From the NCBI GenBank assembly GCA_026388115.1, contig JAPLKK010000017.1:15667-79666 (forward strand): a stretch of DNA of 64,000 nucleotides, written 5' to 3'. The notes under the pieces are model-generated. The model did not search any database and had not been told where the DNA came from. It saw only the letters and a list, made by a program, of their open reading frames with translations. Origin of the DNA: Elusimicrobiota bacterium. Lineage in GTDB: Bacteria; Elusimicrobiota; Elusimicrobia; UBA1565; JACRDR01. The position numbers and the translations under genes were made by a program. Shown piece after piece: positions 34,401-63,090 of this stretch. Every line of letters begins with the position of its first letter. Positions within the stretch are counted from its first letter, which is position 1.

Positions 34401-37400
34401 TGCGGACGCCAACGGCAACGGACAGCTCGACGTGGGCACCGATACGCTGGTCACCAGCGGCAACGACCGGTTCACCAGCGGGTTGGTCACCGTGGGCTTC
34501 ACGCAGTCCCAGGTCATCGCCGCGAGCACGCAGACGTTCTTCGTCTCTGTGGACATTCCGGCCACAGCCATCCCCGGCGATACCTTCGGCGTGGTCGCGC
34601 TCTCGAGCGGCAGCCTCATCGTCGTCGCGCCGAACACGGTCTCGACGACGAGCGTCTCCTTCCCGCTCAAGACGACGCCCGTGCCGATCCAGCAGTATCC
34701 CAACATCATCACCGCTTCGACGGCCTCTTTGGCCCCGGCCGCGATCGACCCGTCGCAGACCAACGTGGGGATGCTGGCCCTCACGCTCAAGACCAACGTT
34801 TCGAACGCGCGCTGGTCGAAGCTGCTCCTCGATCGCGTCGGCGGCCTCGACGCCGACGTCAAGGAGGTCCGCGTCTATTACGACGCCAACAACGTGGGCT
34901 CATGGGACTCGAGGAACGCGAACGCGTATCTTCTCGTCACCTCGACGGGCCAGAGCTTCGGGCTCAAGGGCATCCAGGGTCAGGTGAGCTTGAGCATCGC
35001 CCTGCCGCCGTCGCAGCCGGTGAACTCGACGCCGAAGACGTTCTATATCGTCATCGACATAGCGAACGGGGCCTTGCCGTCGGACTCGATCGCGGTGCGC
35101 ATCCTCAACGCGAACTACCTCACGGTCGACGCCCCCAACACCGTCGCCGCCTTCTCGGCGCAGTCCGGCGCGTCCGTCGTGAACCAGCAGGCCGCGATGA
35201 TGACGGTCGTCGCCTCCACCGGCGTCCTGCCCGCCGTCGTGCGACAGGGCGACTTCAGCGTGCCGTTCGCGCGCTTCGATCTGCAGATGGACCGCTACAC
35301 CGCGCTGTGGACGAAGCTGACGGTCACCGAGGGAGGCACGGCGGCGGACGCCGACGTCAGCAAGGTCAGGCTGTATCTGGCCGCCAGCTCCAGCGAAACG
35401 ACGGTCCAGCCGTTCAGCGACCAGCAGGTGGCCGCGGGCACCTTCGTCTCGGGCCAGGTCATCCTGACCTTCCAGCTCCCGCAGGTCATCTTGTCGACGA
35501 GGACGTTGACGTACTTCCTGACGTACGACATCTCGCCGGTCGCGCAGGCCGGGGTGCTGGCCGGCGCCACGATGAGCGGCCCGGGCTCGTTCGTGCTGGC
35601 CGCGCCCAACGGCGTCAATCCCACCGGCTTCCCGATCCACTCGGGCCTGGCGCTGATCCAGCCGACGGTGACGGGCGTGCTGGCCAGCTTCCAGGACAAG
35701 GCTCCGGCGGGCCTGAAGCAGGGGGCCACCGCCCAGGTGATGATGAGCCTGACCCTTCAGACGACCTCCAACGAGGCCCTGTGGTCCTCGCTCGTCGTGC
35801 AAAAGACGGGCACCGCGCCGGACGCCGACATCCACGCGGTGCGCCTCTTCGTGGACGCCGACGGCAGCGGCGTCCTCAAGCCCGGAGACGCGGAGCTGAC
35901 CTCCGGCGCCGACCGCTTCATCAACGGCTCGGTGACGCTGGCGTTCAACACGCCGCAGGAGATCAGCCCGACGCCGAAGCGGTACCTGCTCGGTCTCGAC
36001 GTGGACCTCCACGCCTCGCCGACGGACACCGTGGGCCTGGCGATCCCGTCGCCCTCCTACTTCGGTCTCGTCGCGCCGAACTACGTCATCAACAGCGGAT
36101 TCCCGCTGCAGTCGTCGAGGATACCGGTCGCCAAGCTCCCGGATATCCTCGACGTGACCTTCACGGACCTGGCGCCGACGGGGGCCAACGAGGGCTCCGA
36201 AACGCTGATGGCGCGGTTGCGGCTGCGCGCCGAGCGCGACAACGCCGTCTTCACGAGCTTGCGCCTGCTCAAGATGGGCTCGTTGCCCGACGTGAATGTG
36301 ACGCAGGTGCGCCTGTATCTCGATGCGAACAACAACGGCGCGGTGGACCCGCAGGACGTGCTCGTGGCGACGGCCGCCTTCTCCAACGGCATGGTCGCGT
36401 TGAGCACGTCGAACGCGATCCTCACCTCGACGCAGACGTACCTGCTGACCTGCGTCCTCGACCCCGGCGCCGCGGTCGGCGCGACGCTGGGCTTGCGCGT
36501 GCCGGACAGCACCTACGTGGGCGCGGCCTTCCCGGACACCCTGTCGGCGCCGGCCTTGCCCTTCTCGACCATCCTCGTCAACGTGCTCGACGCCCGCACG
36601 CCGTCGAAGCCCGTGGTCACGGTGCCCGGCGGGTACTGGGCCGCCTTCGACAACCTGCCGTTCAGCTGGACCTCCCAGGTGGCGCTGGGCTCGATCATGG
36701 ACGTGCAGTACGCCGTCGGCACGGCTTCGACGATGACCGATGTCCTGGCTTGGCAGGACCTGCCGCCGTCGCAGGCGGACGTGACCATCGCCGGGCTCAA
36801 CCTGCAGAGCGGGATCACGTACTTCGTGCTCGTCCGGGCGATCAACGTCATCGGAGGCGTGACGTTCGTCAGCCCCATCGGCGTGTCGCAGGGAGTGCTC
36901 ATCGACTATCAGATCCCGCGGCCGCCCGTGCCCTTGGTCAGCGTGAGCGAAAACGCGGTGCGCATCGCCTGGCCGGCCGTGACGACGGCGGTCGACAGCT
37001 CGACGCTCCCGTCGGGGATCATGGGGTACCTGGTCCAATACCGCACGGGAGCGAGCCCCGTCTGGATCAACGCCAAGACCCAGCTGGCGGTCCCGTCGTC
37101 CATGGCCTTCGGCCCGGCGGCCGCGTGGGCCGCGCGCAAGGCGGCCCAGAACGGCGTCGCGCCGGCGGCGGTCGCGCTCTCGTCGGCGGATCTCATCACC
37201 AACACCAGCTACAATTTCGCTCCGCCGGCCGGCACGGTCTACCTTAAGGCGAGCGCGGTCAGCAACTCCGGACAGATCAGCGCGGACTCGCCGGTGCAGA
37301 AGGTCCAGGTCGGCGCCCTGCCGAAGGGCGGCATCACCAACGTCAGAAACTACCCGAACCCGTTCGACTCGCGCACCGGGGTGACGACGATCAACTTCAC

Positions 37401-37614
37401 GCTGAGCACGGACAGCGACGTGACGATCCGCATCATGACGGTCTTCGGCCAGCAGATCCGAACGATCCACTACAAGGGCTCGGCCGGCTCGGGCAACGAC
37501 GTCCCGTGGGACGGCACCGACGACTCGGGGCGAAAGGTCTCCAAGGGCATCTACCTCGCGGTCATCGAGGGCGGCGGCGCGAGGGTCGTCCAGAAGGTCG
37601 GCATCATCCATTAG
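8953..37614 (+). CDS. Giant cell-surface repeat protein, main portion (9553 aa). Contains Asp-box/BNR beta-propellers, FN3-like domains, five LamG-like domains, nine C-terminal Ca-binding-like repeats, two FN3 domains and a C-terminal FlgD-Ig/Por_Secre_tail-like sorting domain. The same frame is open from about 8707.
   Basis: Uninterrupted 28.6-kb ORF with strong periodic protein repeat structure. Recognisable motifs include the Asp-box S/T-x-D-G-x-T-W, FN3-like TYYWRV, LamG_3-like W.FDEG...DEVR.F.RALSA.EI, and the C-terminal NYPNPF...IY.L..PWDG.D..G..V.KGIYL tail. The stop codon TAG is at 37612-37614. Confidence 0.9.
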   Translation: MPGTMTGSDGTLAAQTLTMTGLNLANSSNTVVCGGFAPCGATNQVIFTASDLAGNVVKLGPYSILLDATTAVAYSTPAAPGLAGFVNVQPNFNWVAPSTPIAAALPPSSAYILQVSNNDPGFSNANLVINISTPISGVGVSLSTAVSPPLSAYVSSFTLTNNTTYYWRVVTLNGGFGWYGPYSSTFSFVTDFSAPTQNGVFTTLSPTGATLTEAQVNTPATSSVTAQIGVQDTISGLAVSSTAVAFAGDGHNYTGAMGGYGVVYSTNAGQSWIDFSSITASRRYDGTVTFGSQLYSFAVYKGALFVSDANTGYLYYSPDGNIWTQVGASQIVPGGLSKPLAVFNGRLFAGDGANGMIYWTAGDTSSWSTANGGVPVGQTIRALAQFSDRLVAADGTNGHIYVSTTGDTWATSQGGQAVGIGAMPALAAYNGQLYAGDSKGNIYFSADASTWTKSNNGLVVGSSISAFAAYNGRLFAADGLNGRVYATSDGVSWSTVNGGVQVTTAPTIGVAALASFNGRLYASAVTGTVSVSTAGGSWWMLNNGYPISPTGGAFWALAPFNGNLVAADAGSVYVIAPVSATLGGADGTGAVQTLTATGLALVNSTRSVVCGGVAPCSATDQVIFTATDRAGNAKPFGPFAVLVDTLTQTLVSTPTFPANGAWVNIQPNFDWIGPSTTPASGLPPGSSYYLQVSNNDPAFAPGNIVISVSTQEYLSATGTSVLASTSLPTAQSGYISSFTLTNATTYYWHVLLGNSVLGTKGPWSQTYSFVTDFAGPAQAGAFLSSSPVLGWIGETQVNPLSNGVTVQVGVQDLLSGMAVSTGSLPFAGDGHDYAGVTAGYGVIYSTSAGQTWIDFSTVTAAAVYTAGNAVTPRLLALAVSSGTIYAAYADNNLPKFYVYHSADGAVWTANNTPSFSYAPQALVPFNGKIFAGFADGSIYYSLNAGTNFSQARPGLTGGLAPIGSNINALVVFNGKLYAGDNNGQVYVSTSGDAGWSATQGGSALSSNGIASLAAFAGRLFAGDRGGRVFATVDGSTWTLMNAGVAVGSNLGSLAAYDNRLFAGDATNGNIYVSTDGGRSWRATNGAVPPTGSAISALSSFSGKLYACDSAGRVIVSTEGYSWMTLNSGYPITGSLSYPAYGLAPFNGKFYVAASSRVFQITPVTANLSGAEGSTAVQTLTASSLRLVTSTTTATCGAAMPCGATNQVLFTASDRAGNAARYGPYAVLVDSTIAVAISTPVYPANQSYVNLQPNFNWNGPSTTTVYGLSQGSAYYLQVSQNDPTFSMGLVISISTPIVNTPQISVSTSLPIAPGAYLSTFTLADNATYYWRVAVANAMDGMFSAWSTSFSFVTNFTAPAAAGVFYSMSPGGQLFGETQIIGIQNGVTAQITVQDANSGLAVSTLNFTGDGHDSVILTVPFGVMYSTTSGQQWIDFSAVTPSNPGVARLYNLTVYNNELYAVDGGGVLYRTVDGAAWYPGINNNWNASVRSMVGFKSAASSTLRLFAGDSNGKIYSSPSPPTQGFATVFSGGSSIGTLATFNGRIYAGDLKTGRIYVSTSGDANAWSATQGGNAVSTTGIQALSTLNGRFFAADKTGSVFVSVDGTTWTLGNIGGAPVGSSITALAPFNGLMYAADAITGKIYSSPDGNTWTTANQGVQVTTSPNVGLQALAVMDGKLYAGDSGGNVWVTVDGSTFTAAYPTPVAGNIGGLAPFNGKLYAADSGNGNVAQLSPVATALGGADGTNAAQVLTARGLNLANSGTVFTCAGVAPCLATNQILFTASNRAANAAKIGPYAILVDAITPVVSLSLPANGTYLNVQPNFNWLGPSTMTAVSLSPGTSYYLQVSADPTFNPANILVSISSPVLPSAGQAISTMAITSDGAYVSTYTLNGATTYYWRVATNSGLYHAVGAFSSTFTFITDFAPPYSSTASFASVSSSGGALAEAQFNDTASGVSAQLAVQDDVALAVSTAAMSFAGDGHDSGLSAGGFGVMVSTNAGATWTDWTVPASSVAVAAPVQAFAVFGGKLYAGGAGSNLYATADGLGWTTKTVATCGGGGTINALAAFRGKLFAGCGGTHGISSDGTSFSAFLAPGKILSFASFNGRLYAGADSQQVSMSTDGAAWWQFSLPLGQTQNSSLAVFRGRLYAGTDSAATRVWHSVDGSTWSKTAGGSAGGAPPAMAVFNGRLYVGGSADTTIRASVDGVNFVPVFTAPFAAGSSNMAAMTVFNGKLYVLDGANKALLWTADGYRWFTSALAVTDAALNALASFNGSLYIGGSSNLYRLQALPAVLAGPDGTTSPQTLSASSLSLAQSSVTTVCNGVYPCAATDQLVFTASDLAGNTALFGPFAVLVDSTSPVAISTPAFPLNGMHVSGQPRLYWLGPSTSVAAGLQPPAAYYLQVAKNDPAFAAGNLVVNIATPVVTSPGDLTANSHYVSTYTLLDNTTYYWRVRAQSGLGTASPWSKAFVFATQFTTPTLSGPFVSNSTGALIPETQFHVLAAGVTAQLTVQDPGGLAFDFVPANRIGTWHFEEAAGALSTDLSGNGNIATLSSPAMWASGYLGTGVAANGNWVDVATPTVAAWSGLTAMAWVYVPSAGLGVVRSSQTVLAGRQFRLEYKVEYRSVGFYADVDPVTGGCSIDEGPAVPLQAAAGTWNHVAFVMDPVNLVNSIYINGVLSRTCSGNPVPGDSSFRFGEDGLSGIGLADAMSGSIDEVSLFSRTLPQPEIAGEMNRKLGFWVYYSTNAGSQWNLVASTAPGNGPYLGSYGVNGSVGPLTVSVAGLSLIQSTNALTCGAVAPCGATNQVKFVVSDLAGNVLSAGPYAILTDSTALSAVPALSYPANGANVGLQPNFDWMGPSTKTAVGLPPGAAFLLQVSQNDVTFAPANVVVSMSTPCIVASTYVPTADATYISTYTLVDNATYYWRVAVQDPVLGTQSPWSSTFSFVLDLTPPAQTGAFTSIDGGLNNLPETTFNTLSAGVTAFITVQDAASGLAVSNTALPLSGDGHDGPASAAGFSVMYSTTAGRLWIDVSTMIVANGGLAVGAKIGALATFGGKLYATDAAGARVYSSGNGGVSWTTVNLPAATTLGPIAVFAGKIYVGDTTTGMIFSSANGLTWTAAAGGAPVSACGTVRSLAVFLNKLYAADNCGKVYLSTDGNGWGIGNNGAAVGASIGALAAFNGKLYAGDANGNVYVTLRGIVWTPTNGGNPVVGSVIALAMFDGRLFAAGAAGDLAFSADGVEWPAVNGGVPVTNSFAALTAFNGKLYGADPATGRLYASPDGNLWVVLNSSAPVGAALGALVPYNGSLYAGDSANGKVYQLAPVPASLAGADGTAAAQALSALALNFTFSTNTQVCGGVQPCGATNQLIFTASDRAGNVTAGGPFAMLVGTPVNSATPTLHVPMDMGYVNVTQPVLSWLHPSTAAYPGLTIFHLEVSADPSMSPLLVLVSTNVGFGVPAVTYPLSSVVLPAATTYYWRVRGETFSGVVGPYSAVRSFQTVLSPPALTSFVHLNSMGAPLNEYQASDLALGVTAQVTAQDGQTGLNLYGTPDTTAVAFYPFEDLVSSAARNAFNNGNPAVLMGGAVPAPGRWGVGVALDGASGTLRVSDAPNLDVFDRITVEAWIKPAAPVTADTTFVRKAAANGTSGWALEYLGGQLAFWTANGGAANCSAGNAACAPVYLNGGEWYHLVGTLDGATLSLYLDGVLVSSRNVTTGPGEPHAPIYLGSSQGTGRFFAGTIDDVRLFYEGRGSAVVLQDFRSPTSPVAVFSSDAGNTWSIVSTTYPVTAGMPFLAVGGSQGTTGAQAFQLVNFNVVQSTTAAVGAAATNQVKFFASSVGGYANTAGPYGVLYDAVANIAIDTPTSPANGVYVSSPSPTFVWNAPNLAGVTLYELRVSADPSFSSLVINNSTPAVTGVAVGTYSAVEVLGPATTYYWQVRSRTTLNRTGPWSIPYSFVTDFTPPGLLNFNTVGSTGAVFIETQVQVSTAVVADLTVFDGLAGLSAAAGFSASFSTNAGQGWNVVTSTVGGAGPYLNVTWPEGGNAGIFSLVNMPVGQSTSTAVCGGVPQPCGATNQVVFYLRDRAGNLSVGGPYAILADTTAAVAISSPAAPAAGAWSGLNPGTAFVWSTPSTYTLSGLQSFSLEVSSNASFAPLSFIVSTPVVTGALAASYVSTQMLPEGTTIYWRVRVLDSLGNFSPYSAVSTFLVDSGSPLPLSYGVVSSTGGILTEADPLGSFTVSVALSAQAAVSGLPATGASVIVSTDGGAHWSTFGSTLTVLSSTLEAGVISAKVFNGSAYAGTQGNARLFRSPDGRSWPPVAAFSNNVSVNSLEVFNGRLYAGTGGGLAGGRVYSSADGNVWSPAFTPSGASSVAALAAFNGRIIAAYDAFVAGSTNGVSWSKLATMPNGPATALAVFNGKAYAACGPYVCSSYGGAAWSSTPRFSGSSNLSAIAAFNGRIYVAGDIGVQSTAGDDAWPWRSELSVPGETFSSLAVADGRLYAGSAQNGYVYATVDGTSWARVLSGTGETGMSALQAFNGKLYAGTAPNAKILELSPYAAVSGVDGAVTPQALIATGLAVAASTSTALCGGDWPCSANNQTRFAVSNEAGNVAFLGPYAVIVDTVIALARPLLVEPTVEGMTLLQPEFRWTVSTAIAAGNLTGFEVQLAGAPSFNTLLLDQPVANMFLPSPLILAASGVYYWRVRSFDVFGASSSFSDAATVIIDTQAARGSQFLTYNNLGVTFPEGGLMDLATGVTAQLNVQEGVSGLERAGPGPLAPVSGTLLLWHLDEGAGSTVGDAGTWGNGGTIYGAPVWTNGRFGKALRLPAPASASNYLAAASQPSLSAANVTLEAWINTQSTQAAVLQSQGGAYGITIGMGGAAGDVGATFNGVSADCHRRVDDGAWHHLAATCDFGSARFYLDGALCANVGAPSSMPSAGALSVGLRFDGTQPYAGLLDELRVVNRALSADEIYRDATYGAPYTAFVSTNGGQNFLVVATTFPVTPGAPYVTLTGVDGSTSTEVLQARNLSLVQSTTLSSGALATDQIIWRVANRAGAITAIGPYAVLVDSTGLAALPKLTYPAHGAYSNVQPNFAWVGPSTTTAAGLPASSGVVLQVSSNDPAFSLASMVVNISTPVVVASTVVPTADGAYFSTFTLTDATTFYWHVGVLNAALGTYGPWSQTFSFVTDLTKPVQTGSFSSFNSVQASLGETFWNDLSAGVTAQITVQDGGSGLALSAGALAFAGDGHDGPGLSGGYSVMYTTMAGQQWVEWPTFTVGTVGTSAIDSLAVFKGKLYAGYGTGGKIYSSPNGAFWTQVFAPGVSDSVNTLAEFNGRLYAGAGGSSALVYASSNGVNWSQVFASADAAVQSLAAFNGKLYAGTASNGNIYASTDGVIWAQVFAGNSSPLSALAAFNGRLYAGDAASVYASADGVTWTAVSLPGGVGPAAFAAFNGKLFAGTNGGGTNHIFSSPDGVAWTPVLSLAGEGVTACAVTNGKLDCATGAGNLYASPDGTVWAQTLSSAMTNQGPIYALAAFNGKLNAGAGTGNVIQLAPVAAAISGTDGTLASQNLSSMLNLTLSTNTAVCAGSWPCGATNQVLFTASDRAGNVTRSGPFALLVDTPVDSATPTLHLPMDMGYASQPSPVFTWVHPSTTAFRGLSVFHFELANSASMSPLLVNVATPVVFGMPAPSYALAAALAPATTYFWRVRAETFAGVLGPYSSTYSFQTAFSSPAASNFVHFSSTGGALTALQDSDLSVGVTVQITAVDLQTGLSFWGSPDATAMLFYPFEDVVNPPALNAFNGVNPLSFVGGAAVGPGRWGKGAVLNGANGTLTTPNTPGLQDLTGSITLETWIKPSSLVSNDTTFIRKGGNVFGWSLEYLGGLLVFWLGNGAGPTCGVNAVCVNAVLAGGEWYHLAGAYDGTAMSLYVDGKLMAVTPYSSGGGFNSDALYVGSYQGTSRFFGGVIDDVRVFAAGRTAAQVLYDFRSPTPPLALYSTSAGNAWSVVSATYPAYPGLPFISLTGLQGTTSAQPVQLVGFSVVQSTSVLPGAGATNQVKFLFADVAGNAVVAGPYGMIFDSVASVALDTPSAPGNGVYVSSPSPNFYWQAAGLAGVTLYEMRASIDPAFGPLSISISTPATTGVFIGTYNAVEVLAPSTTYYWQLRSRTTLNRTSAWSTAYSFVTDFVPPALATYTTVGSYGAVLTEAQTQISTSVAVRIQAFDGLAGLAGSGFRVVYSSNAGASWSLVSSTAPSAGPYLQVTWQDGQSSGTLSLVNLFLGQSTSTTICGGAAPCAATNQVLFYINDRGGNLSIAGPYAILADTTAALAISAPAVPAAGAWVTANPGAAYVWNTPSTSTLSGLAAFYLEVAANPSFNPLVFTVSTPAVPGALAAAYVSTHTLAEGATIYWRVRSLDSLGNFSPYSAPSTFLVQSGAPNPLAYGVVSSTGGILTEADALGNYTAAVTLAAQDSLSGLSAGGASVVVSINAGNDWYALAGTFTALSGTAETGVLSLAYFGGYLYAGTQGTARVYRSPDGRNWYPVYAFGGNSAVPSLAVFNGQLYAGTSGGMSGGRVFSSPDGTQWSSAYAPAGVASISALAAYDGRVYATLDDGWIAASTNGVNWAKMALLPNGAATALTVFKGKLYATCGGAYLCSSYGGTTWSSTQRFSSFTVLDALASFNGRLYVGGDGGIASAPDDLTWPWRFEVWTGGETVASFGTVGGRLYAATAQSAALYAVIDSGHWAQVLSGTGESDIAALQAFNGKLYAGTLPHGFVLELSPLAALMPGGDGATGVQSLRASGLTLTQSTTTALCGGAVPCGATNEVRFTAANMAGNVRFAGPYAVLIDTVIATARPMLVEPVVEGFSLKVPEFRWTVSTAVSMGNLTGFEFQLANAPDFIALLWAQRTMDRALTLPFYLGEGGKYYWRVRAFDVAGTTSTFSDVSTVFIDTFPPIGNSFAAFTSTGLAVPEGTLIDLASGVTAQLTVQDTVSGLRLSGPGPAAVIPGTALLWRFDEGTYSTATSNSAWPGQKVYDSGPWGSTGAVAGLPVWVNGRFNKALRFSGTGADWVYGIWPFLSLSSPTVEAWINTLSTSGYVLSSQGGAYSVLIGSAGLSAGDIGAIFNTVLVDCGRRVDDGGWHHVAATDDGADLSFYLDGALCGSTPAPASLPAPGTLDVGVNIDGSGAFSGVIDEVRIIDHPLGAAEILRDATFGVPYAAAFSTNAGRSFQLVTSTYPVTSTSPYVSVSGADGATSPQALQICNLTLTQSTNTKTGAQGTNQMVFVASDRSGNLAKFGPFTILVDSLIGQPTAYYPAPGSWVNRLSPALTWAEANALPRHEVLLSRDNFLTLVMDSTTANSDILLSGYPTRLTLAQGGTYQWKVRATGLTGNKSLYSAANQFTVDAVAPTAGGFGTYSSTGAFLDQTQWSNRYGANTVQARFQDTGPSGLAMSTGSFGVMYSTTAGLNWVDWSQLVSTLAVQGATAVSALASFDGSLYAGSSGNGQVVTSADGVSWTPAFGFPGQSGVLSLQPFAGQLFAGVSPGHQVWASADGASWAQAFDTGGGSAVESMVLFDGKLFMGTDNNASIYSSVDGSSFTLAAAIGGQTDVLAFAVFDGHLYAGTAGGNGAQLWRSPDGARWQLAWPPAGNTTGETRVRSLAVFNGKLYMGTAPGGLILASVDGLTWPGTALSGTGATDVPAMTSTNGKLYASLAAPGGMLYATADGVNWRLTLSGTSDNGFASLTSFNGGLYAGGRSSGWVYAMPPVVSAFTGVDGSIGVETMTATGLALTQSADGTRCSGGVGSCAATNQVLFSASDRAGNAVSYGPYSVLVDSSVPQPVIAALTATSTDSVRVDLYPVPDLLSGTSDYQYYLSGVSDFSDAVTTTPFVTTSSYTFRGLGEATTYYIRAVARDRVGSVSPYSVLAATMTDGVLYSSYTDITSSSAYQSTDQPMLRLMLWTEVGRTALLNRLEVHMDTAANPAAPLSSPLGAGNDADILIAKLYADAQGLGVFDSHAVQLGEAPMSNGRAIIDLSGNVQAIQSSTRTYFVVYKVADAAAINDRLDAVLLDDNALGFANSYRALAAYSVSSLNTYPVISSGTVVVDGPNNLYVDALSVAPQTAAPGQSGIPMMRLRMNTDHGTSALDHVVFDVTGSAVASTDVASIAIYRDDNGDGVYEPGIDGLVTSGNDLFSNAVASVAFVTSLHVPISSRTINSGTQDYFVLINMALGAQPSDLVGVSVTASSSVVTVGPDTPILSASPLSSSQVRLSLPNRLYLRTSSVAPPSVKQGQKYAVLMTSMNVVCGLPACANPGATTVTGLQVNRTGTAQDGDVAAVEVWKSANPGSPFNPSADYPLGTGAFVGGTSFVAFSTQTLTSPTTSVFFIVYTLSVNANAGATVGASLTNNTYVTVTNPDTTVTGAFPMPTVSTTSLIAQTVNKLLVTNSQDVTVAAQFLQARADLPLLRLDVHADQNTVSWTGLTLRSTGTAMDSDIAAVKVYADANGNGQLDVGTDTLVTSGNDRFTSGLVTVGFTQSQVIAASTQTFFVSVDIPATAIPGDTFGVVALSSGSLIVVAPNTVSTTSVSFPLKTTPVPIQQYPNIITASTASLAPAAIDPSQTNVGMLALTLKTNVSNARWSKLLLDRVGGLDADVKEVRVYYDANNVGSWDSRNANAYLLVTSTGQSFGLKGIQGQVSLSIALPPSQPVNSTPKTFYIVIDIANGALPSDSIAVRILNANYLTVDAPNTVAAFSAQSGASVVNQQAAMMTVVASTGVLPAVVRQGDFSVPFARFDLQMDRYTALWTKLTVTEGGTAADADVSKVRLYLAASSSETTVQPFSDQQVAAGTFVSGQVILTFQLPQVILSTRTLTYFLTYDISPVAQAGVLAGATMSGPGSFVLAAPNGVNPTGFPIHSGLALIQPTVTGVLASFQDKAPAGLKQGATAQVMMSLTLQTTSNEALWSSLVVQKTGTAPDADIHAVRLFVDADGSGVLKPGDAELTSGADRFINGSVTLAFNTPQEISPTPKRYLLGLDVDLHASPTDTVGLAIPSPSYFGLVAPNYVINSGFPLQSSRIPVAKLPDILDVTFTDLAPTGANEGSETLMARLRLRAERDNAVFTSLRLLKMGSLPDVNVTQVRLYLDANNNGAVDPQDVLVATAAFSNGMVALSTSNAILTSTQTYLLTCVLDPGAAVGATLGLRVPDSTYVGAAFPDTLSAPALPFSTILVNVLDARTPSKPVVTVPGGYWAAFDNLPFSWTSQVALGSIMDVQYAVGTASTMTDVLAWQDLPPSQADVTIAGLNLQSGITYFVLVRAINVIGGVTFVSPIGVSQGVLIDYQIPRPPVPLVSVSENAVRIAWPAVTTAVDSSTLPSGIMGYLVQYRTGASPVWINAKTQLAVPSSMAFGPAAAWAARKAAQNGVAPAAVALSSADLITNTSYNFAPPAGTVYLKASAVSNSGQISADSPVQKVQVGALPKGGITNVRNYPNPFDSRTGVTTINFTLSTDSDVTIRIMTVFGQQIRTIHYKGSAGSGNDVPWDGTDDSGRKVSKGIYLAVIEGGGARVVQKVGIIH
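16480..17140 (+). other. LamG/concanavalin-A-like lectin domain 1 (Laminin_G_3-like) inside the giant protein.
   Basis: Translated segment GTWHFEEAAGALSTDLSGNGN...GTWNHVAFV...IYINGVLS...SIDEVSLFSRTLPQPEIAGE. This matches the LamG_3 pattern W.FDE..G....D.SGNGN....W..G..G.AL.FDG...L.DE+..+.RALS..EI. Confidence 0.65.
19590..20210 (+). other. LamG-like domain 2.
   Basis: VAFYPFEDLVSS...RWGVGVALDGASGTLRV...ITVEAWIKP...EWYHLVGTLDGATLSLYLDGVL...GTIDDVRLFYEGRGSAVVLQDF. Confidence 0.65.
23270..23850 (+). other. LamG-like domain 3.
   Basis: LLLWHLDEGAGSTVGDAGTWGNGGTIYGAPVWTNGRFGKALRL...VTLEAWINT...AWHHLAATCDFGSARFYLDGAL...LLDELRVVNRALSADEIYRDAT. Confidence 0.7.
26265..26880 (+). other. LamG-like domain 4.
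   Basis: AMLFYPFEDVVNPPALNAF...RWGKGAVLNGANGTL...ITLETWIKP...EWYHLAGAYDGTAMSLYVDGKL...GVIDDVRVFAAGRTAAQVLYDF. Confidence 0.65.
29935..30545 (+). other. LamG-like domain 5.
   Basis: ALLWRFDEGTYSTATSNSAWPGQKVYDSGPWGSTGAVAGLPVWVNGRFNKALRFSG...PTVEAWINT...GWHHVAATDDGADLSFYLDGAL...VIDEVRIIDHPLGAAEILRDAT. Confidence 0.65.
32700..36600 (+). repeat. Nine tandem in-frame repeats of roughly 140-150 aa in the C-terminal third of the giant protein. Each carries an EF-hand/FG-GAP/dockerin-like DxNxDG..D loop, which predicts Ca-binding beta-sandwich-like modules of unknown family.
   Basis: Recurrent pattern A.W..L.L...GT..D.DI..V.VY.DANGNG.LD.GTD.LVTSG.D.F..G.V.L.F...Q.I....+TYF...DI...A.PGDT.G. Examples: YRDDNGDGVYEPGIDGLVTSGNDLF, YADANGNGQLDVGTDTLVTSGNDRF, FVDADGSGVLKPGDAELTSGADRF, YLDANNNGAVDPQDVLV. 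Confidence 0.6.
36600..37300 (+). other. Two fibronectin-III-like domains that precede the sorting domain.
   Basis: PSKPVVTVPGGYWAAFDNLPFSWTSQ...GITYFVLVRAINVIGGVT and PVPLVSVSENAVRIAWPAV...GYLVQYRTG...YNFAPPAGTVYLKASAVSNSG. Confidence 0.5.
37320..37614 (+). other. C-terminal sorting domain of the FlgD-Ig-like / Por_Secre_tail (T9SS-type CTD) kind.
   Basis: PKGGITNVRNYPNPFDSRTGVTTINFTLSTDSDVTIRIMTVFGQQIRTIHYKGSAGSGNDVPWDGTDDSGRKVSKGIYLAVIEGGGARVVQKVGIIH. This is the canonical YPNPF..T.I.F.L.....V.I.I....G..V..L....AG.....WDG.D..G..V..G.Y shape of about 90 aa at the extreme C-terminus. Confidence 0.7.
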
Positions 37615-37644
37615 CGTCCGAACCGGCCGCGCGCCTCGAGGCTC

Positions 37645-37727: not shown

Positions 37728-37775
37728 CTCAGAATGTCTTCGTGATTAGGGGGGCTATCCCGTTAAACTTGTGGT

Positions 37776-41884: not shown

Positions 41885-41887
41885 GCC

Positions 41888-42844
41888 ATGGCGAACGAGC
41901 CCACCAAGAAAGCGGCGTCGTTTCTGGCCTCCTTGCGCGGCGGCGCGCGGGGAGCGGCGGGGGGGGCGGCGGCCGCGGGCGGCGCCCCGCCCGAAGAGCT
42001 GGTCCGTCCGCTGCAGCGGCGCGTCGACGAGCTCGAGAAGCGCGTGCAGGACGTCTTGAAGGCGGCCGCGGGACCCGAGGAGGGCGAGCCTCCGCGCGCG
42101 CCGACGGAGCTGATGATGTACATCCACGCTCGCACCGAGCTCCTCGAGCGCAAGCTGCAGGAAGCGCAGGCCGAGGCCCTGCGCGCGAACCTCCTGCTGC
42201 ACGAGCGCGAGACGGCCCAGCGGCAGGCGCAGAAGGAGGTGGAGGAGCTGTTCCGCACCATCAAGGAGCACGAGCGCGCCGCGCGCTACGACGGCGCGCT
42301 TCGCGAGCAGCTATCGTCGGCCCAAAGGAAGATCGCGGAGCTGGAACGGAAGGTCGGGGGAGGGGAGCCGCCGTCGTCGGCGCCTCCCGCGCCGCCTGCT
42401 GAGGCCCAATTGGCCACAACCGTCCGCGACGTCGACTCTATGGCGCTGCTCGTGCTGACGGCGAAGCTCGCCGATCTGGAGCGGGAACTCGAGGCGGCGC
42501 GGCGGGAGAGGGATGAGGAGCGCGCGCGCAGGACCCGGTGGGAGCGCGAGACGGCCGCGACGCTGGCCCAAGCCCATTGGAAGAAGCCCACCAACATCGA
42601 GCTCACGGTCGAGGCCGCGCTCGAGACGATGGCGCTGGCCTTGCGCGAGCGCGAAGACACCGAGCGGGAGCTGAAGGAGGCTATGGCTCAGGCGGAGAGT
42701 CAACCGCCGGACGCCGGTCCCGATCCCGTGCTGCGCGCCCGCATCACGGGCGCGCAGGAGCGTCTTGACCGGCTGTCGCGGACGCTGGACGAGCAGATGC
42801 ATCTGGTCCAGGCGTGGATCGCGGGGAATAAACAGGCAGGGTGA
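41888..42844 (+). CDS. Charged coiled-coil protein with an Ala/Gly-rich N-terminus. A FliH/FliJ-like role is speculative.
   Basis: ATG at 41888, 4 nt after the upstream stop. Heptad-rich E/R/A/L sequence (LQRRVDELEKRVQDVLKAAAG..., RELEAARRERDEERARRTRWERE). No globular domain recognised. Confidence 0.5.
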   Translation: MANEPTKKAASFLASLRGGARGAAGGAAAAGGAPPEELVRPLQRRVDELEKRVQDVLKAAAGPEEGEPPRAPTELMMYIHARTELLERKLQEAQAEALRANLLLHERETAQRQAQKEVEELFRTIKEHERAARYDGALREQLSSAQRKIAELERKVGGGEPPSSAPPAPPAEAQLATTVRDVDSMALLVLTAKLADLERELEAARRERDEERARRTRWERETAATLAQAHWKKPTNIELTVEAALETMALALREREDTERELKEAMAQAESQPPDAGPDPVLRARITGAQERLDRLSRTLDEQMHLVQAWIAGNKQAG

Positions 42845-44408
42845 AATAGAATACGCTGCCTTTTTCGGGCTCCGATTCCGCCCAGATCCTGCCGCCGTGC
42901 CCCTCGACGATCGTCTTGCAGATCGAAAGCCCCAGGCCCGTGCCCTCCACCGGCGTCGCCCGGTGATGGTCGTCCACGATCCTTTCGAACTTGACGAACA
43001 GCCGTCCCATATCCTCGGGCCGTATCCCGAGGCCGGTGTCCTTGACCGCGCAGCGGATGAAGTCCCCGTCGCGTCCGGCCTCGATGCGGACCGAGCCGCC
43101 GCGCGGGGTGAACTTGAGGGCGTTGCCGATCAGGTTGTTGAAGACCTGGTCGAGCTTCTCGGGATCCGCCCAGACGGCGGGCAGGTCCTCTGGAACGTCG
43201 TGGCTGAAGGCGACGCCGCGCGAGGCCGCGCTCGCGGCTAACAGAGCCAGGCGCGGCACGAGCTCCTGGAGGCGCGCCTCCTTCATCATGAATTTGAACC
43301 GCCCCGAGCGGATCCTCGCCGCGTCCAGGATGTTGGCCACGAAAGCCGACAGCTTCCGCGTCGAGTTCTTGATGAGGTTCACCAGCCGCGTCTGCTCCTC
43401 GCCGAGCGAGCCGTAGTCGCCGGTCGTGAGCGCGTCGGTGATCATCGTGACGGCGTTGAGGGGCCCGCGCAGGTCGTGCGAGACCATCGAGATGAACTCG
43501 TCTTTGAGCTGGTCGAGGGTGCGCAGCCGGTCGTACAGCTTGGCGTTGTGGATCGCCTGGGCGATCATCGAGCAGAAGATGGCGGCGTGCCGCAGGTCCT
43601 GGGCCACGAACGGCTGCTGGCCCGGCTTGCGGTTGACGCTCAGCACGCCCAAAAGGTCCTCGTTGAGCATGATCGGGTACACCAGCGACACGCCGACGTC
43701 CTTGCGCCCCGGCAGGTCGGCGAAGCGCGGGTCGGTCTGCAGGGGGCCGTTGATGTTGACGCCGGTCCGCCATTGGGCGACGCGGTCGGCCACGGCGGGG
43801 GCCGGGGCCACGGAGGGCATGCGCCCCCACTCCTCGCGGGGGAGGGCGGTCGAGGCGGTCAGCGTGAACTGCTTCTGGTCGTTGAGGAGCATCACGCTCA
43901 CGTCATCGGCGCTCAGGACCTTGGCGGCCAGCGAGATGAGATCGGGCAGCAGCTCCTCGAGCTCCGTGTCGGCGAAGACGCTGCGCGTCGCCTCATAGAG
44001 CGCGACCAGCGCCTTGAGGCCGATCTTCTCGCCGAGGGCGGGCAGGAGCGCCTCGAGCTCGACCTGGGCGAACGGCTTGATAAGGAAGGCGTAGGCCCCG
44101 AGGCGGATGGCCTGCCGCGCGACGCGCTCGGCGAGGGCGTCGCCGGTGGCCAGGATCACCTCGATGTCGGGGTCCACCCGGCGCAGGGCCTCGAGGGTCT
44201 GCAGGCCGTCTTTGCCCGGGAGCTGGTAGTCCACCACGGCGACCTGGAACTTGCGCCGGCGGGCCTCGGCCACCGCCTTTTCAGCGGTGTCAACGCCGAC
44301 CACCTCGTAGCCCTTGGCCTTCAGGCTCGCGGAGACAAGCTCCCGCCACTCGTCGTCATCTTCGACGACAAGGATGCGGTGAGCGTCAGAAGCCTCAGAC
44401 GCTCCCAT
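42744..44408 (-). CDS. Hybrid signalling protein: receiver (REC) domain, GAF-like domain and histidine kinase.
   Basis: REC: ILVVEDDDEW...VAVVDYQLPGKDGL...LIKPF. HisKA: FISMVSHDLRGPLNAV. HATPase: FNNLIGNALKFTP, DTGLGI, GTGLGLSICK. Its 3' end overlaps the convergent coiled-coil ORF by about 100 nt. Confidence 0.8.
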   Translation of the reverse strand: MGASEASDAHRILVVEDDDEWRELVSASLKAKGYEVVGVDTAEKAVAEARRRKFQVAVVDYQLPGKDGLQTLEALRRVDPDIEVILATGDALAERVARQAIRLGAYAFLIKPFAQVELEALLPALGEKIGLKALVALYEATRSVFADTELEELLPDLISLAAKVLSADDVSVMLLNDQKQFTLTASTALPREEWGRMPSVAPAPAVADRVAQWRTGVNINGPLQTDPRFADLPGRKDVGVSLVYPIMLNEDLLGVLSVNRKPGQQPFVAQDLRHAAIFCSMIAQAIHNAKLYDRLRTLDQLKDEFISMVSHDLRGPLNAVTMITDALTTGDYGSLGEEQTRLVNLIKNSTRKLSAFVANILDAARIRSGRFKFMMKEARLQELVPRLALLAASAASRGVAFSHDVPEDLPAVWADPEKLDQVFNNLIGNALKFTPRGGSVRIEAGRDGDFIRCAVKDTGLGIRPEDMGRLFVKFERIVDDHHRATPVEGTGLGLSICKTIVEGHGGRIWAESEPEKGSVFYFTLPVYSPRSTPGPDASARPASATAGQDAPARP

Positions 44409-44545
44409 TCAGTTAATTTTTCGCTTATGAGGAAGCTCTGTCAAGTGGGGAATTGTCAGCGCTAGTCAGCGGCGCTGCAATCGCCGAGGCCCCTTCCTCG
44501 ACCCGGGGTGAAGGAAGTTGTAGTATTGTCGAGAGCGGAAATGAC

Positions 44546-45406
44546 ATGGCCTCGCTGACGGCCCTAAAAAACATCGCGGATAGCTATAGATTTCAGCTTC
44601 GGCTTCGCGGCCAACTGGGGCCGCGTCTGGCCTACACCACGCTGTACTGGGGGCGGTACCTCGCCGCCCGCTACGGCCCGCGGCGTCTGGACAGCAGCGG
44701 CGCCCACTGCGCCGCCTTCGCTTATCTCGGCCGCAGCGGCCGCAGCGCTCGGACCGTCACCGTCGCCACGCCGCAGGGCCTGCGCCTCCGGGTCTATCTC
44801 ATGACCGCTTTCATGGTGCTCAAGGAGCTCTACGGCGAGCGCATCTATGAGGACTGCGACCTCGATGACTTCCGGGTCGGTGAGGGCCAGGTGGTCTTCG
44901 ACATCGGCAGCCAGCAGGGCGTCTTCGCGCTGGCCGCCGCCCGGCGGGCCGGCGCGGGCGGGCGCGTCGTCGCCGTCGAGCCGGAGCCGCGCAACCGCGA
45001 GCTGCTGCTCGCGAACATCGCCTTGAACGGCCTCTCGAACGTCCGCGTCTTCGATTGCGCGATCTCGGACCAGGAGGGCTCCGCGCGGCTGTTCATCAAT
45101 GCCGAGAACACCGGCGCCCATTCGCTGGTGGGGGCCGGCTCCGGCCGCCACGTCGTCGTGCGGACGATCACGCTCGACCAGCTGGCGCGCGAGGCCGGCT
45201 GCGCGCCGCAGCTGGTCAAGATCGACGTGGAGGGCAGCACCCTGGCGGTGCTGCGCGGGGGCCTCGAGACCATCGGCGCTTCCAGGCCCCGCATCGTCCT
45301 GGAGCTGGACGCTCCGGAGGACGAGGCGACGATCCGGGCGCTGCTCGAGCCTTTGGGCTACCGCCTGCGCCGGAAAGGCAACAATCTCTTTGCCAGCGCG
45401 GCGTAA
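44546..45406 (+). CDS. FkbM-family SAM-dependent methyltransferase. Likely start is the internal ATG (MASLTALKN...); the track ORF begins at 44453.
   Basis: VVFDIGSQQGVFALAAARRAG..GRVVAVEPEPRNRELLLANIALNGLSNVRVFDCAISDQEGSARLFIN...SLVG...ITLDQLAREAGCAPQLVKIDVEGSTLAVLRGG matches the Methyltransf_21 (FkbM) pattern. Confidence 0.75.
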   Translation: MASLTALKNIADSYRFQLRLRGQLGPRLAYTTLYWGRYLAARYGPRRLDSSGAHCAAFAYLGRSGRSARTVTVATPQGLRLRVYLMTAFMVLKELYGERIYEDCDLDDFRVGEGQVVFDIGSQQGVFALAAARRAGAGGRVVAVEPEPRNRELLLANIALNGLSNVRVFDCAISDQEGSARLFINAENTGAHSLVGAGSGRHVVVRTITLDQLAREAGCAPQLVKIDVEGSTLAVLRGGLETIGASRPRIVLELDAPEDEATIRALLEPLGYRLRRKGNNLFASAA

Positions 45407-45417
45407 TATCGCCGACC

Positions 45418-45446
45418 TTGACAGCCCCGACGGCGGCTGGTATTCT
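45418..45446 (+). promoter_or_regulatory. Sigma70-like promoter upstream of motA: TTGACA at 45418-45423, a 17-nt spacer, and TATTCT at 45441-45446. A GAGGGA Shine-Dalgarno sits about 10 nt before the ATG at 45479.
   Basis: Read directly from the sequence: cgaccTTGACAgccccgacggcggctggTATTCTtttgtcgcccacgccGAGGGAacttcaccgctATG. Confidence 0.5.
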
Positions 45447-45478
45447 TTTGTCGCCCACGCCGAGGGAACTTCACCGCT

Positions 45479-46222
45479 ATGGACCTCACCACAATCCTTG
45501 GCATCTTCGGTATCTTCGGCTTAGGCGCCGTCGTCTGGGTCACCGGCCAGGTCTCCTCCGCCTTCCTGAACGCGCACGGTCTGACCATGGTGATCGGCGG
45601 CGCCCTGGTCGCCATCCTCGTGAACACTCCCCTGCCGCTGTTCCTCGAGGCGCTGCGGGCTCTCTTCGTGCTGTTTCGGCGCGAGTCGGCGGGCGATCCG
45701 CGCGAGATCGTCCCCGTCCTGGTGACGGCGTCGCAGAACGTCCACGCGCGCGGCATCAACGCCCTGGCGGGCATGGACCCCGCGGTGGCCGGGGGGTTTT
45801 TGGCCCGCGCCGCGCAGATCGCGATGGAATTCAAGGACCCCGTCTACGTGAACGAGGTCCTCGGCGCGGAGTTGGCGCGCGAGAATGAGCATCACAACGA
45901 GATCGTGAACGTGTACCGGACGCTCAGCGTCCTCTTTCCGATGTTCGGCCTCATCGGCACTCTGTTCGGCATCGTGCACGTGCTGAAGAACCTCGGGACC
46001 GACCCCGGCGCCATCGGCCCGGCCATGGCCGTCGCCATCACCTCCGCCTTCTACGGCATCTCGTTCGCGAACCTCTTCGCCGTGCCGGTGGCGGGAAAGC
46101 TCCGCATCAAGTTCCGCCAGGAGCTGTTCGTCAAATCCGTGATCGCGGAGGCGGTGGTCGAGATGCTCAAGGGGACCGCACCGGTCCTCGTCGAGCGCCG
46201 CCTGGAGTCGGCCCTCTTGTAG
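45479..46222 (+). CDS. motA: MotA/PomA-family proton-channel stator subunit (4 TM).
   Basis: About 247 aa with TM1/TM2, a cytoplasmic loop, and TM3/TM4. The TM4 signature AMAVAITSAFYGISFANLFAVPVAGKLR is typical of MotA. The size matches PomA/MotA. Confidence 0.8.
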   Translation: MDLTTILGIFGIFGLGAVVWVTGQVSSAFLNAHGLTMVIGGALVAILVNTPLPLFLEALRALFVLFRRESAGDPREIVPVLVTASQNVHARGINALAGMDPAVAGGFLARAAQIAMEFKDPVYVNEVLGAELARENEHHNEIVNVYRTLSVLFPMFGLIGTLFGIVHVLKNLGTDPGAIGPAMAVAITSAFYGISFANLFAVPVAGKLRIKFRQELFVKSVIAEAVVEMLKGTAPVLVERRLESALL

Positions 46223-46237
46223 GGCGGGGCCGCGCCG

Positions 46238-46936
46238 ATGCCGATCCTGCACCTGCCGGAAGACGACCTCGAAAGCAAGCTCAACTCCAGCGCGCTGTGG
46301 GCCGTGACCTACGGCGACATGATGAGCTATCTGATGATCTTCTTCCTGGTCCTGTTCGCCTTCAACGTCACGAAGAAGGTGGACCAGAAGGAGGTGCAGC
46401 CCGATAAGAAGACCGACGATACGGTCATCAGCATCGTGAACGTGTTCGGCGGTAAGATCGACCTCGAGCGGCAGAAGCGCTTGAAGCAGCGTCAGGCGGA
46501 GCAGGAGATGGCGCAGAAGGCCGAGGCGGAGGCGAAGGCGGGGCCCGCGGGCATGGAGGTCAAGAATCTGGCCGACCGGGTCCAGTTCGTGCTCGACAGC
46601 GCCGTGCTCTTCGACTCGGGCCACGCCGAGCTCAGGAAGGAGGCGGTCCCGACGCTCGAGAAGATCGCCGAGAACCTCAAGGAATCGCCCAACGAGATCG
46701 TGGTGGAGGGGCACACCGACAACGTGCCCATCCACCACGGCAAGTACAGCTCCAACTACGAGCTGTCCATGGCCCGCGCCTACAGCGTCGTAACCTTCTT
46801 GATCAATCACGGCATCGCGCCTCAGCGCCTGTCGGGGGCGGGCTACGGCGAGTACAAACCCGTGGCCGACAATCAGACGGCCGAAGGCAAGGCCAAGAAC
46901 CGCCGCATCGAGATCGCGCTTTTCCGCACCAAGTGA
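46238..46936 (+). CDS. motB: MotB-family stator subunit with an OmpA-like peptidoglycan-binding C-terminal domain.
   Basis: N-terminal LWAVTYGDMMSYLMIFFLVLFAF (compare MotB W.VTYADLMTLLMAFF, with the conserved protonatable Asp). The OmpA-like C-terminus reads VVEGHTDNVPI...YSSNYELSMARAYSVVTFL...NRRIEI. Confidence 0.85.
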   Translation: MPILHLPEDDLESKLNSSALWAVTYGDMMSYLMIFFLVLFAFNVTKKVDQKEVQPDKKTDDTVISIVNVFGGKIDLERQKRLKQRQAEQEMAQKAEAEAKAGPAGMEVKNLADRVQFVLDSAVLFDSGHAELRKEAVPTLEKIAENLKESPNEIVVEGHTDNVPIHHGKYSSNYELSMARAYSVVTFLINHGIAPQRLSGAGYGEYKPVADNQTAEGKAKNRRIEIALFRTK

Positions 46937-61649: not shown

Positions 61650-61651
61650 CC

Positions 61652-63076: not shown

Positions 63077-63090
63077 GCCCTCTTCGACTC

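Follow-up and report, generated by a model that had tools for sequence, protein, structure and literature searches.

A conserved gene module of Elusimicrobia linking a histidine kinase-FliF-FliG fusion protein and a MotAB stator to a PorV-like barrel and a giant surface protein

The DNA analysed here is a stretch of 64,000 nucleotides (nt) from the metagenome-assembled genome (MAG) of an Elusimicrobiota bacterium (positions 15,667 to 79,666 of contig JAPLKK010000017.1, assembly GCA_026388115.1), which we call the window; its G+C content is approximately 69%. Six genes on its + strand encode, in this order, a giant surface protein, an outer-membrane barrel fused to tetratricopeptide repeats (TPR), a single polypeptide joining a histidine kinase to FliF- and FliG-type rotor domains of the bacterial flagellum, a coiled-coil protein, and the stator subunits MotA and MotB. 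An earlier note on the window had pointed out these genes as a possible non-flagellar rotor-stator module, and they lie exactly where it had placed them. All data used in this study come from MAGs. The six genes are as follows (ORF, open reading frame; AF2, AlphaFold2).

2..37614, + strand: giant surface protein gene (ORFs 104..8968 and 8953..37614)
37776..39410, + strand: barrel-TPR protein, 544 residues (PorV_fam and TPR profile matches)
39410..41884, + strand: fused kinase-rotor protein, 824 residues (Pfam, alignment of 24 orthologues, AF2, Foldseek)
41888..42844, + strand: coiled-coil protein, 318 residues (conserved family member, no Pfam family)
45479..46222, + strand: MotA/PomA-type stator subunit A, 247 residues (Pfam MotA_ExbB, NCBIfam, PDB)
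46238..46936, + strand: MotB-type stator subunit B, 232 residues (Pfam MotB_plug, OmpA)

The stop codon of the barrel gene overlaps the ATG of the rotor gene as TAATG (39408-39412), the coiled-coil gene follows the rotor gene after 3 nt, and the stop codon of motB overlaps the GTG start codon of a putative trpE gene as GTGA (46933-46936). We found no flagellar genes beyond the module in the 64-kb window, in agreement with the earlier note; this covers the module genes, the giant gene and the 53-64 kb region, which were scanned with hidden Markov models, and the 46.9-53.2 kb region, which was judged by translation. Statements about missing flagellar genes in this paper refer to the window and to 11 Pfam-annotated related loci, with flanks of 8-10 kb where the contig allows.

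The 824-residue protein matches five Pfam families above their gathering cutoffs: HisKA, HATPase_c, YscJ_FliF_C, FliG_M and FliG_C. Hydrophobic segments at approximately residues 1-30, 319-345 and 514-547 are the three transmembrane (TM) segments in the order TM1, cytoplasmic histidine kinase, TM2, periplasmic FliF ring-building motif 3 (RBM3) with β-collar, TM3, linker, FliG_M and FliG_C. The predicted topology is that of FliF, with FliG joined on directly in place of the contact between the FliF peptide and FliG_N. The domains map to the window as follows.

39671..40348, + strand: histidine kinase core (HisKA, residues 88-153; HATPase_c, residues 199-313)
40445..40936, + strand: periplasmic FliF-type ring-building domain (RBM3 split by a short β-collar insert)
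41231..41821, + strand: FliG middle domain (residues 608-676) and C-terminal domain (residues 702-804)
41696..41725, + strand: torque-helix equivalent, residues 763-772 (alignment to T. maritima FliG)

The kinase core scores 59.8 bits for HisKA and 86.4 bits for HATPase_c. His97, Asn210/Asn214, the D242-x-G-x-G246 motif and Gly274-Gly278 are invariant in 24 sequences, and the core structure matches GacS, HK853 and RetS in Foldseek. The kinase is thus predicted to be catalytically intact, sensor-less and tethered to the membrane. The periplasmic region of approximately 165 residues is wholly explained by RBM3 and its insert. YscJ_FliF_C scores 34 bits in the window protein and 39.5 bits, with full coverage of the profile, in the related locus L040. 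Both RBM3 halves align to the FliF chains 9yh6 and 8z5s, with a shorter insert at the β-collar, and Foldseek matches the protein to the FliF RBM3/collar entries 6sd1, 7bk0 and 8z5v with a probability of 1.0. The N-terminal Pfam family YscJ_FliF has no match in the 824-residue protein, which lacks RBM1 and RBM2, the motifs that house the export gate in flagella.

The FliG part is equally clear. FliG_M scores 37.6 bits (cutoff 25) and FliG_C, the stator-contacting domain, 53 bits (cutoff 23.3); in a phmmer comparison with T. maritima FliG (1lkv) both domains are aligned with E=2e-21. The mean predicted local distance difference test score (pLDDT) of the AlphaFold model is 69-70, with values >80 in the kinase and FliG regions. 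A Foldseek search with the whole protein was swamped by kinase matches and was therefore rerun with the C-terminal 479 residues. The AF2 model of this part retrieves only flagellar rotor proteins from the PDB, including FliG_C bound to MotAB (8ucs); 1lkv is matched with E=1e-11, and the FliG_C structure 1qc7 with a TM-score of 0.82-0.89 and a root-mean-square deviation of 1.2-1.4 Å. The torque-helix equivalent carries a family motif, K/R-[TS]-W-x-x-L-E-Q, that is well conserved across 39 loci. In the window protein the equivalents of E. coli Lys264 and Arg281 are kept, and the substitutions D288Q, D289V and R297T are found; a conserved Glu precedes the Gln of the torque helix by one residue. 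The earlier note had read this ORF as a histidine kinase followed by a FliF-type domain, a FliG N domain and a torque helix. The kinase, the RBM3 part of FliF and the position of the torque helix stand; the supposed FliG N domain is FliG_M/FliG_C, as FliG_N reaches only 15.4 bits (cutoff 25) and its match overlaps that of FliG_M.

The stator genes lie a few kb downstream of the rotor gene, as the earlier note had stated. MotA has four TM segments and scores 68.5 bits for MotA_ExbB. Its best NCBIfam matches are PomA, MotP and MotA, while TolQ is matched with only E=5e-4, and in the PDB its best matches are Aquifex MotA (8gqy, 108 bits) and PomA of Vibrio (98 bits); all structures matched there are flagellar MotA or PomA, none of them ExbB or TolQ. 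These rankings rule out a motor of the Tol, Exb or Agl type. The score of 132 remains below the NCBIfam equivalog cutoff of 341, and therefore the protein is not an orthologue of any named stator. MotB has a plug region (41.3 bits) and an OmpA-like, peptidoglycan-binding domain (75.1 bits). In an alignment of six MotA/MotB pairs the channel Asp of MotB (YGD) is conserved, as are the prolines of MotA in 'PMFG' and 'VPVAGK'. Where PomA has Arg88-Gly90 and Glu99, the cytoplasmic loop of MotA carries basic residues and an Asp that does not vary, and where PomA has Glu96 it carries a basic residue. From these residues, the interface between FliG and MotA appears conserved, having drifted along with a dedicated stator, and would be compatible with torque generation. 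We also looked for co-varying charge swaps in the FliG helix and the loop of MotA, but the sub-families differ in both partners and follow no clean pairwise rule; this comparison was not used.

The protein encoded directly upstream of the rotor gene has a signal peptide, a PorV/PorQ-like (FadL-like) barrel spanning approximately residues 1-300, and TPR repeats at approximately residues 330-520 that score above Pfam cutoffs. Orthologues in five loci are 43-48% identical, and family members are fusions of 509-525 residues. The PorV/PorQ-like barrel with TPR repeats described in the earlier note holds for the repeats and, at the level of the family, for the barrel: the L040 orthologue scores 156 bits on NCBIfam PorV_fam and also matches Pfam PorV and Toluene_X, whereas the window copy, like that of L001 (81.9 bits), stays below the cutoff of 90. 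Because both termini of an outer-membrane barrel face the periplasm, the TPR domain is presumably periplasmic.

The giant gene comprises >12,500 codons. Its 5' end is cut by the edge of the window, the ORF being open to base 2, and frame analysis reveals a frame switch in the middle of a repeat near 8,860-8,950. The upstream frame is no longer repeat-like after '...LNGKLYAGE', and the downstream frame is repeat-like from approximately 100 nt ahead of its nominal start. As the repeat character passes from one frame to the other, ORFs 104..8968 and 8953..37614 are one gene; the frameshift is either genuine or an assembly error in the repeats. The body of the protein contains propeller-like DUF6242 repeats, lectin-like Laminin_G_3 domains, Ig domains and fn3 domains (Pfam). 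Its C-terminus is the following feature.

37351..37599, + strand: C-terminal sorting-type domain (type-A C-terminal domain, CTD, of type IX secretion systems, T9SS; FlgD Ig-like β-sandwich)

Two profiles match the last 85 residues or so above their cutoffs: TIGR04183 Por_Secre_tail of NCBIfam, with 28.8 bits (cutoff 23), and FlgD_ig of Pfam, with 32.2 bits (cutoff 27). The giant protein thus shows a T9SS trait, cargo with a type-A CTD. Of the earlier description of a surface protein of about 12,500 codons with such a C-terminus, the size and the CTD are borne out; the frame switch near 8.9 kb and the open window edge rule out a single intact ORF. Profile searches therefore support what had been recognised by motif alone for FliG_M/FliG_C, the RBM3 part of FliF, MotA, the plug and OmpA domain of MotB, and Por_Secre_tail/FlgD_ig.

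More than 40 related loci contain the same set of genes. With the FliF-FliG half as query, 27 orthologous fusions of 820-850 residues (37-52% identity) were found, all from Elusimicrobia where named, and when one genome per species was scanned, 38 loci were obtained, all from Elusimicrobia except two titled just 'bacterium'. In all five long contigs the gene order is giant FlgD_ig protein, barrel-TPR, HK-FliF-FliG (HK, histidine kinase), a variable unannotated protein, MotA and MotB, with MotAB straight after the variable protein. Mapping of all components by tblastn distinguishes two arrangements. The fusion type is present in approximately 20 species, and 17 of its loci have a CTD immediately ahead of the barrel gene. 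The split type is present in approximately 16 species and has the order barrel-TPR, HK (336 residues), MotA, FliF-FliG (542 residues), coiled coil and MotB, which was confirmed in L040 by ORF listing and Pfam. Proteins of 2,250 to 14,454 residues occupy the position of the giant gene in related loci.

The kinase, the rotor and the stator work together, we believe, because they are fused in one lineage and are encoded by adjacent separate genes, with motA between them, in another. The earlier note had considered that the fusion might be an artefact joining independent genes. It is not: an identical ORF is present in the Logan assembly of run SRR25046533, and orthologous fusions occur in approximately 20 species, next to the 16 or so with adjacent halves. 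As judged from the recurring gene order, the neighbourhood is not due to chance.

A profile of the FliF-FliG half was also searched against 1.84 billion cluster representatives, and 227 were found at E<=1e-30. The best 150 of these 227 are mostly proteins of 470-700 residues that match nearly the whole profile and have no kinase; the rest are shorter and partial. Named members are nearly all from Elusimicrobiota. Instead of the torque-helix sequence described above, the kinase-less proteins have 'NMSEGxxALLKEEMEFG[KR]P', in which the acidic pair is kept as EE, together with a MotA loop of the type 'RARTEG..ALERD', which is nearer to the canonical pattern. One of them (L046 1143-3290; P0029, GCA_964502965.1) is a FliF(RBM3)-FliG_M-FliG_C-TPR protein of 715 residues preceded by a protein ending in TPR. 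L049 (GCA_002412545.1, an Elusimicrobia UBA genome) encodes a 14,454-residue protein, a TPR protein, FliF-FliG-TPR, an 800-residue protein, FlbD, MotA, an OmpA protein and MotB; L050 has the same order, with a giant protein of 10,883 residues and a 1,007-residue protein in place of the 800-residue one. L051 has two large Ig/Kelch proteins, UPF0164-TPR, FliF-FliG, MotA and MotB-LysM; L052 has an FlgD_ig protein, FadL-like-TPR, FliF-FliG, MotA and a LysM protein; and L047, whose upstream flank is truncated, has FliF-FliG, MotA, MotB and an FlgD_ig protein. Since every kinase-less locus that we fetched shares it, barrel-TPR, FliF-FliG and MotAB form an invariant core, usually beside giant or CTD proteins, to which the kinase and the coiled-coil protein are lineage-specific additions. 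The linkage of the motor genes to MotAB, barrel-TPR and CTD or giant proteins, which the earlier note had seen at one locus, is thus conserved even in relatives without a kinase.

A few details of these loci may be recorded here. In L049 (14592-16306), FlbD, a flagellar protein associated with the stator, precedes motA and an extra OmpA-domain protein is encoded between motA and motB; the FlbD gene hints that the module descends from a flagellar operon of the flbD-motAB type. A FlgO/CsgG-like lipoprotein gene follows motB in L001 (16339-17190) and in that relative only. P0226 (cluster of P0119) and P0130/L052 are labelled Thermoprotei archaeon and Candidatus Saganbacteria, respectively; each of the two comes from a short MAG contig, and L052 is syntenic downstream with L051, which carries no label. 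These labels probably reflect binning errors, although the family may occur outside the Elusimicrobiota; we make no claim that it does.

Could these simply be normal fliF, fliG and motAB genes, or their relics, that happen to lie beside an adhesin gene? The domains are unmistakably flagellar, a few Elusimicrobiota have complete flagella, and one variant has flbD beside motA. On the other hand, FliF lacks RBM1/2, FliG lacks the N domain and the FliM-binding EHPQR motif, and both are fused to a kinase. The catalytic and channel residues are intact at 35-50% identity over approximately 40 species, and there are 227 cluster representatives. The 11 annotated loci contain no fliM/N, flhA/B, fliI, rod or hook genes; the flagellar extras are just FlbD or an FlgO-like protein, in single variants. 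Apart from these, the neighbours are always barrel-TPR and MotAB, never other flagellar genes. In relics, neither this gene order nor the overlaps between start and stop codons nor the invariant residues would persist, which rules out the decaying version of this explanation; as a whole we find it hardly credible.

The remaining component of the fusion-type operon, the coiled-coil protein, was listed in the earlier note and is indeed a member of a conserved family, with lengths of 143-680 residues elsewhere. The protein is cytoplasmic and has no TM segment. Family members share an N-terminal motif and a block of the type 'EREEAQRKAQKEVEELF', and the versions from fusion-type and split-type loci are homologous (hhalign probability 96.9%, E=2e-10). 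The coiled-coil protein matches none of the families in Pfam or NCBIfam, and we find no support in these databases for a protein of the FliH, FliJ or FliL type.

The window departs from its relatives between the coiled-coil gene and motA, where the following features are located.

42744..44408, - strand: hybrid receiver-GAF-histidine kinase (Pfam)
44453..45406, + strand: FkbM-family methyltransferase (Pfam/NCBIfam)
45418..45446, + strand: sigma-70-like promoter candidate before motA (TTGACA-17-TATTCT with TG)

The two protein-coding genes were missing from the component list of the earlier note. The promoter it had assigned to motAB agrees with the sigma-70-like candidate just upstream of motA; two sites were found, compared to 0.5 expected from shuffles. 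The receiver-GAF-kinase gene has a promoter-like site at 44444-44416. The coiled-coil and receiver-GAF-kinase genes are convergent, and their 3' ends overlap by approximately 100 nt (42744-42844). In the two closest relatives the receiver-GAF-kinase (60% identity; L006 6900-8444, L036 3520-5064) likewise separates the coiled-coil gene from motA, and it is not present in other lineages. As these relatives share the inserted kinase, the gap before MotAB is a clade-specific insertion and not a break in the module. The FkbM methyltransferase has no counterpart in the other loci, which rules it out as a conserved member; it probably stands outside the module.

Regulatory genes of other kinds adjoin many versions of the module. 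A CheY-like single-domain receiver (53-70% identity) lies between barrel-TPR and the kinase in some split-type loci (L029 7602-7970, L031 7603-7965, L039 4001-4363) and after motB in some fusion-type loci (L002 15361-15744, L004 14394-14768, L027 7251-7619), and in many fusion-type loci motB is followed by OmpR-type proteins whose receivers are degenerate. Such neighbours suggest that the motor is controlled and that there is a transcriptional output. We found neither gene in the window, where the receiver-GAF-kinase is a candidate signalling partner and may replace them.

These genes raise the question of whether the module is a sensor. The ring and stator would sense load or the state of the envelope, the kinase would read this, and the output would be transcription through the OmpR-like protein; the adhesin and barrel would serve as input, and no net work would be done. 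In approximately 36 species the sensor-less kinase with its single TM tether is fused to the rotor or encoded beside it, its catalytic residues being invariant; many loci are flanked by CheY-like and OmpR-like genes, and the clade of the window has an extra receiver-GAF-kinase inside the module. Flagellar stators are themselves load sensors. However, the kinase is fused in the lineage of the window, adjacent in the sister lineage and absent in others, and the wider family keeps barrel-TPR, FliF-FliG and MotAB without it, so signalling is not the core function. A stator predicted to conduct ions and to be anchored to peptidoglycan, together with a conserved torque-helix equivalent, also exceeds what a sensor needs. 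We consider a mainly sensory role quite improbable.

Among the other genes of the window, the ORFs at 46.9-53.2 kb resemble a trp operon, as judged by their translations only. At 53-61 kb, HMM scanning identified DAHP synthase, shikimate-pathway and Fic genes. The DUF4172-Fic-HTH gene at 54633-55739 coincides with a dip in G+C (0.625 compared to ~0.70) amid genes of aromatic amino-acid biosynthesis and looks like an insertion. At 61169-63981 there are three + strand ORFs (371, 291 and 132 residues) without a Pfam family.

The module shares with the flagellar motor's core the FliF RBM3/collar, FliG_M, FliG_C and an equivalent of the torque helix, the topology TM-ring domain-TM-FliG, a MotA of the flagellar clade, and a MotB with plug, channel Asp and OmpA-like domain. 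It differs in having no RBM1/2, FliG_N or FliM/FliN and no genes for export, rod, hook or filament at its loci, in combining FliF and FliG in one polypeptide with an N-terminal histidine kinase, in its altered EHPQR motif and charges, and in its partners, a PorV-like barrel-TPR protein and giant CTD proteins. The module is therefore not a flagellum: its locus does not encode the defining components, and the parts with which FliF and FliG would bind them are lacking. To our knowledge, the interface between FliG and MotA is known solely as the torque generator of the flagellum.

The closest natural precedent is the FliF-FliG fusion of the Chlamydiaceae, bacteria that are not thought to be flagellated, which has a shortened periplasmic region (Bergeron 2016, PMC4768692). 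The chlamydial protein has approximately 330 residues and consists of RBM2, one RBM-like element and a FliG_M-like part only, without RBM3 (SpoIIIAG-like) and FliG_C; the chlamydial flagellar genes named in that paper are FliF, FliL and FlhA, with no mention of a MotAB partner, and the fusion is discussed in connection with the injectisome (PMC4768692). The protein from Elusimicrobia, in contrast, has RBM3/collar, FliG_M and FliG_C, and MotAB is its constant companion. In Salmonella and Vibrio, engineered FliF-FliG fusions assemble rings and can support rotation at 1:1 stoichiometry, but these are artificial, contain full-length FliF and FliG and work inside a complete flagellum, whereas the module protein is natural.

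The resemblance to the T9SS and gliding machinery of Bacteroidota is of a different kind. Both have an ion-driven 5:2-type stator, a giant repetitive adhesin with a CTD, an adjacent PorV/PorP-like barrel, TPR-containing linkers, and associated two-component regulation. PorV and carriers of the PorP/SprF type bind the CTD of their cargo, and SprB with SprF is the pair of giant gliding adhesin and outer-membrane barrel carrier. The motor of the module is MotAB on a FliF-FliG ring, as predicted, whereas that of the T9SS is GldLM on GldKN. Neither the window nor the annotated flanks of related loci contain SprA/Sov, GldK/L/M/N (PorK/L/M/N) or PorU, and GldJ was not seen either; the barrel is fused to TPR, and Elusimicrobiota are outside the recognised range of the T9SS. 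The module cannot be filed as a T9SS, of which it has just the cargo tag and a PorV-like barrel.

It could nonetheless energise secretion, with MotAB and FliF-FliG taking the roles of GldLM/PorLM and GldKN and powering, from the proton-motive force, the export of the CTD protein through the outer membrane and its hand-over to the barrel; an adhesin already outside would not be moved. The giant protein does have a type-A CTD and the barrel is PorV/PorQ-like; the CTD, barrel and motor genes are contiguous in at least 17 loci and in distant variants; and TPR proteins of the T9SS bridge the ring and the translocon, according to PMC8754138. The lack of a SprA/Sov-like translocon, PorU and GldK/N in the window and the annotated flanks counts mildly against this explanation. 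In addition, one dedicated motor per cargo gene is unusual for general secretion, and the split-type loci have no adjacent CTD gene. We regard a role in secretion as rather unlikely.

Another comparison made in the earlier note was with the Agl-Glt system of Myxococcus, in which a proton-driven motor of the MotAB family is coupled through the periplasm to outer-membrane proteins and surface adhesion. AglRQS is TolQR-like and belongs to a non-flagellar clade, the system has no FliF or FliG, and the Glt proteins of the periplasm and outer membrane differ from those of the module.

The earlier note had supposed that the architecture is undescribed, and our full-text searches likewise found no description of the operon, the fusion or a link between FliG and PorV. 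Uzun et al. (bioRxiv 10.1101/2022.07.08.499144) reported that most free-living Elusimicrobiota have homologues of motAB, flbD and fliG but no flagellar structural genes, and called their role "unclear"; a few have complete flagella. The fusion, the operon and the link to barrel or giant proteins are not described by these authors. A survey in ISME J in 2025 noted that rotor proteins without filaments might serve other functions, and a paper on groundwater Elusimicrobia genomes does not discuss motility.

Comparative genomics supports the earlier suggestion of a rotor-stator that is not flagellar; that it exports, anchors or moves the adhesin is suggested by gene content and linkage. We lean, with some reserve, towards an envelope-spanning module, characteristic of the Elusimicrobiota, in which an ion-driven force is passed to a giant adhesin bound to the barrel, that is, the logic of SprB built on a flagellar rotor. 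Rotation, the formation of a ring and the output of the module are what we infer from sequence. The fusion protein would oligomerise into a ring, as FliF RBM3 and the engineered FliF-FliG fusions do, and peptidoglycan-anchored MotAB would turn this ring through the helix of FliG_C. The periplasmic collar would engage the TPR domain of the barrel protein, whose gene lies immediately upstream and is presumably coupled to the rotor gene in translation, and the barrel would hold the type-A CTD of the giant lectin/Ig-repeat protein in the manner of PorV or of PorP/SprF-type carriers. Ion flow would in this way produce a force at the outer membrane that drags, tensions or helps to deploy the giant adhesin, in gliding or attachment. 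Within the membrane, the kinase is probably coupled to the ring or the stator; its most likely role is to read or set the motor's state through the CheY-like and OmpR-like proteins encoded beside many versions of the module.

Several observations weigh against a force-transmitting module. The locus contains no driveshaft-like component, the contact between collar and TPR is a proposal, and the monomer AF2 model has a pLDDT <50 in the collar insert. The canonical charge pattern of FliG (R281, D288, D289, R297) is only partly kept, with K/R retained, D288 replaced by Gln and D289 by a hydrophobic residue. The EHPQR motif reads E-E-P-E-N in the window and E[DE]PxN in 39 loci; as this is the FliM-docking motif, its replacement fits with our finding no FliM. 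On the outer-membrane side, the barrel of the window scores 64.8 bits on PorV_fam (cutoff 90), the giant gene is frameshifted, no translocon for a protein of 12,500 residues was identified, and the split-type loci have no CTD protein directly upstream. Every organism is a MAG, the module being known from genes alone, and linkage by itself fits movement of the adhesin, its secretion and pure signalling alike.

A bolder version of the force-transmitting module is possible, and we put it forward tentatively: an unrecognised rotary machine of the envelope, in which a minimal rotor of FliF S-ring and FliG, lacking an axial filament and an export apparatus, is turned by MotAB and the torque is taken up in the periplasm by the TPR arm of the PorV-like carrier to propel or tension the adhesin, giving surface motility or adhesion that does not depend on a flagellum. 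In some lineages every rotor subunit would carry a kinase. Such a machine may be a stripped-down descendant of the flagellum or a living model of a pre-flagellar state.

If a force-transmitting module of this kind exists, a flagellar rotor-stator can act as a stand-alone power unit. This would bear on what use 'half a motor' might have, a long-standing question, and on how flagella may have originated or been reduced. A rotor made from one polypeptide, with FliF and FliG at 1:1 and no switch complex, would be a simpler object for structural and biophysical work. The module would also connect sorting domains of the T9SS type, and barrels resembling PorV, with another motor outside the Bacteroidota. 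Finally, the 'enigmatic' motAB and fliG genes of Elusimicrobiota without flagella, among them magnetotactic ones that need some means of moving, could be explained by it.

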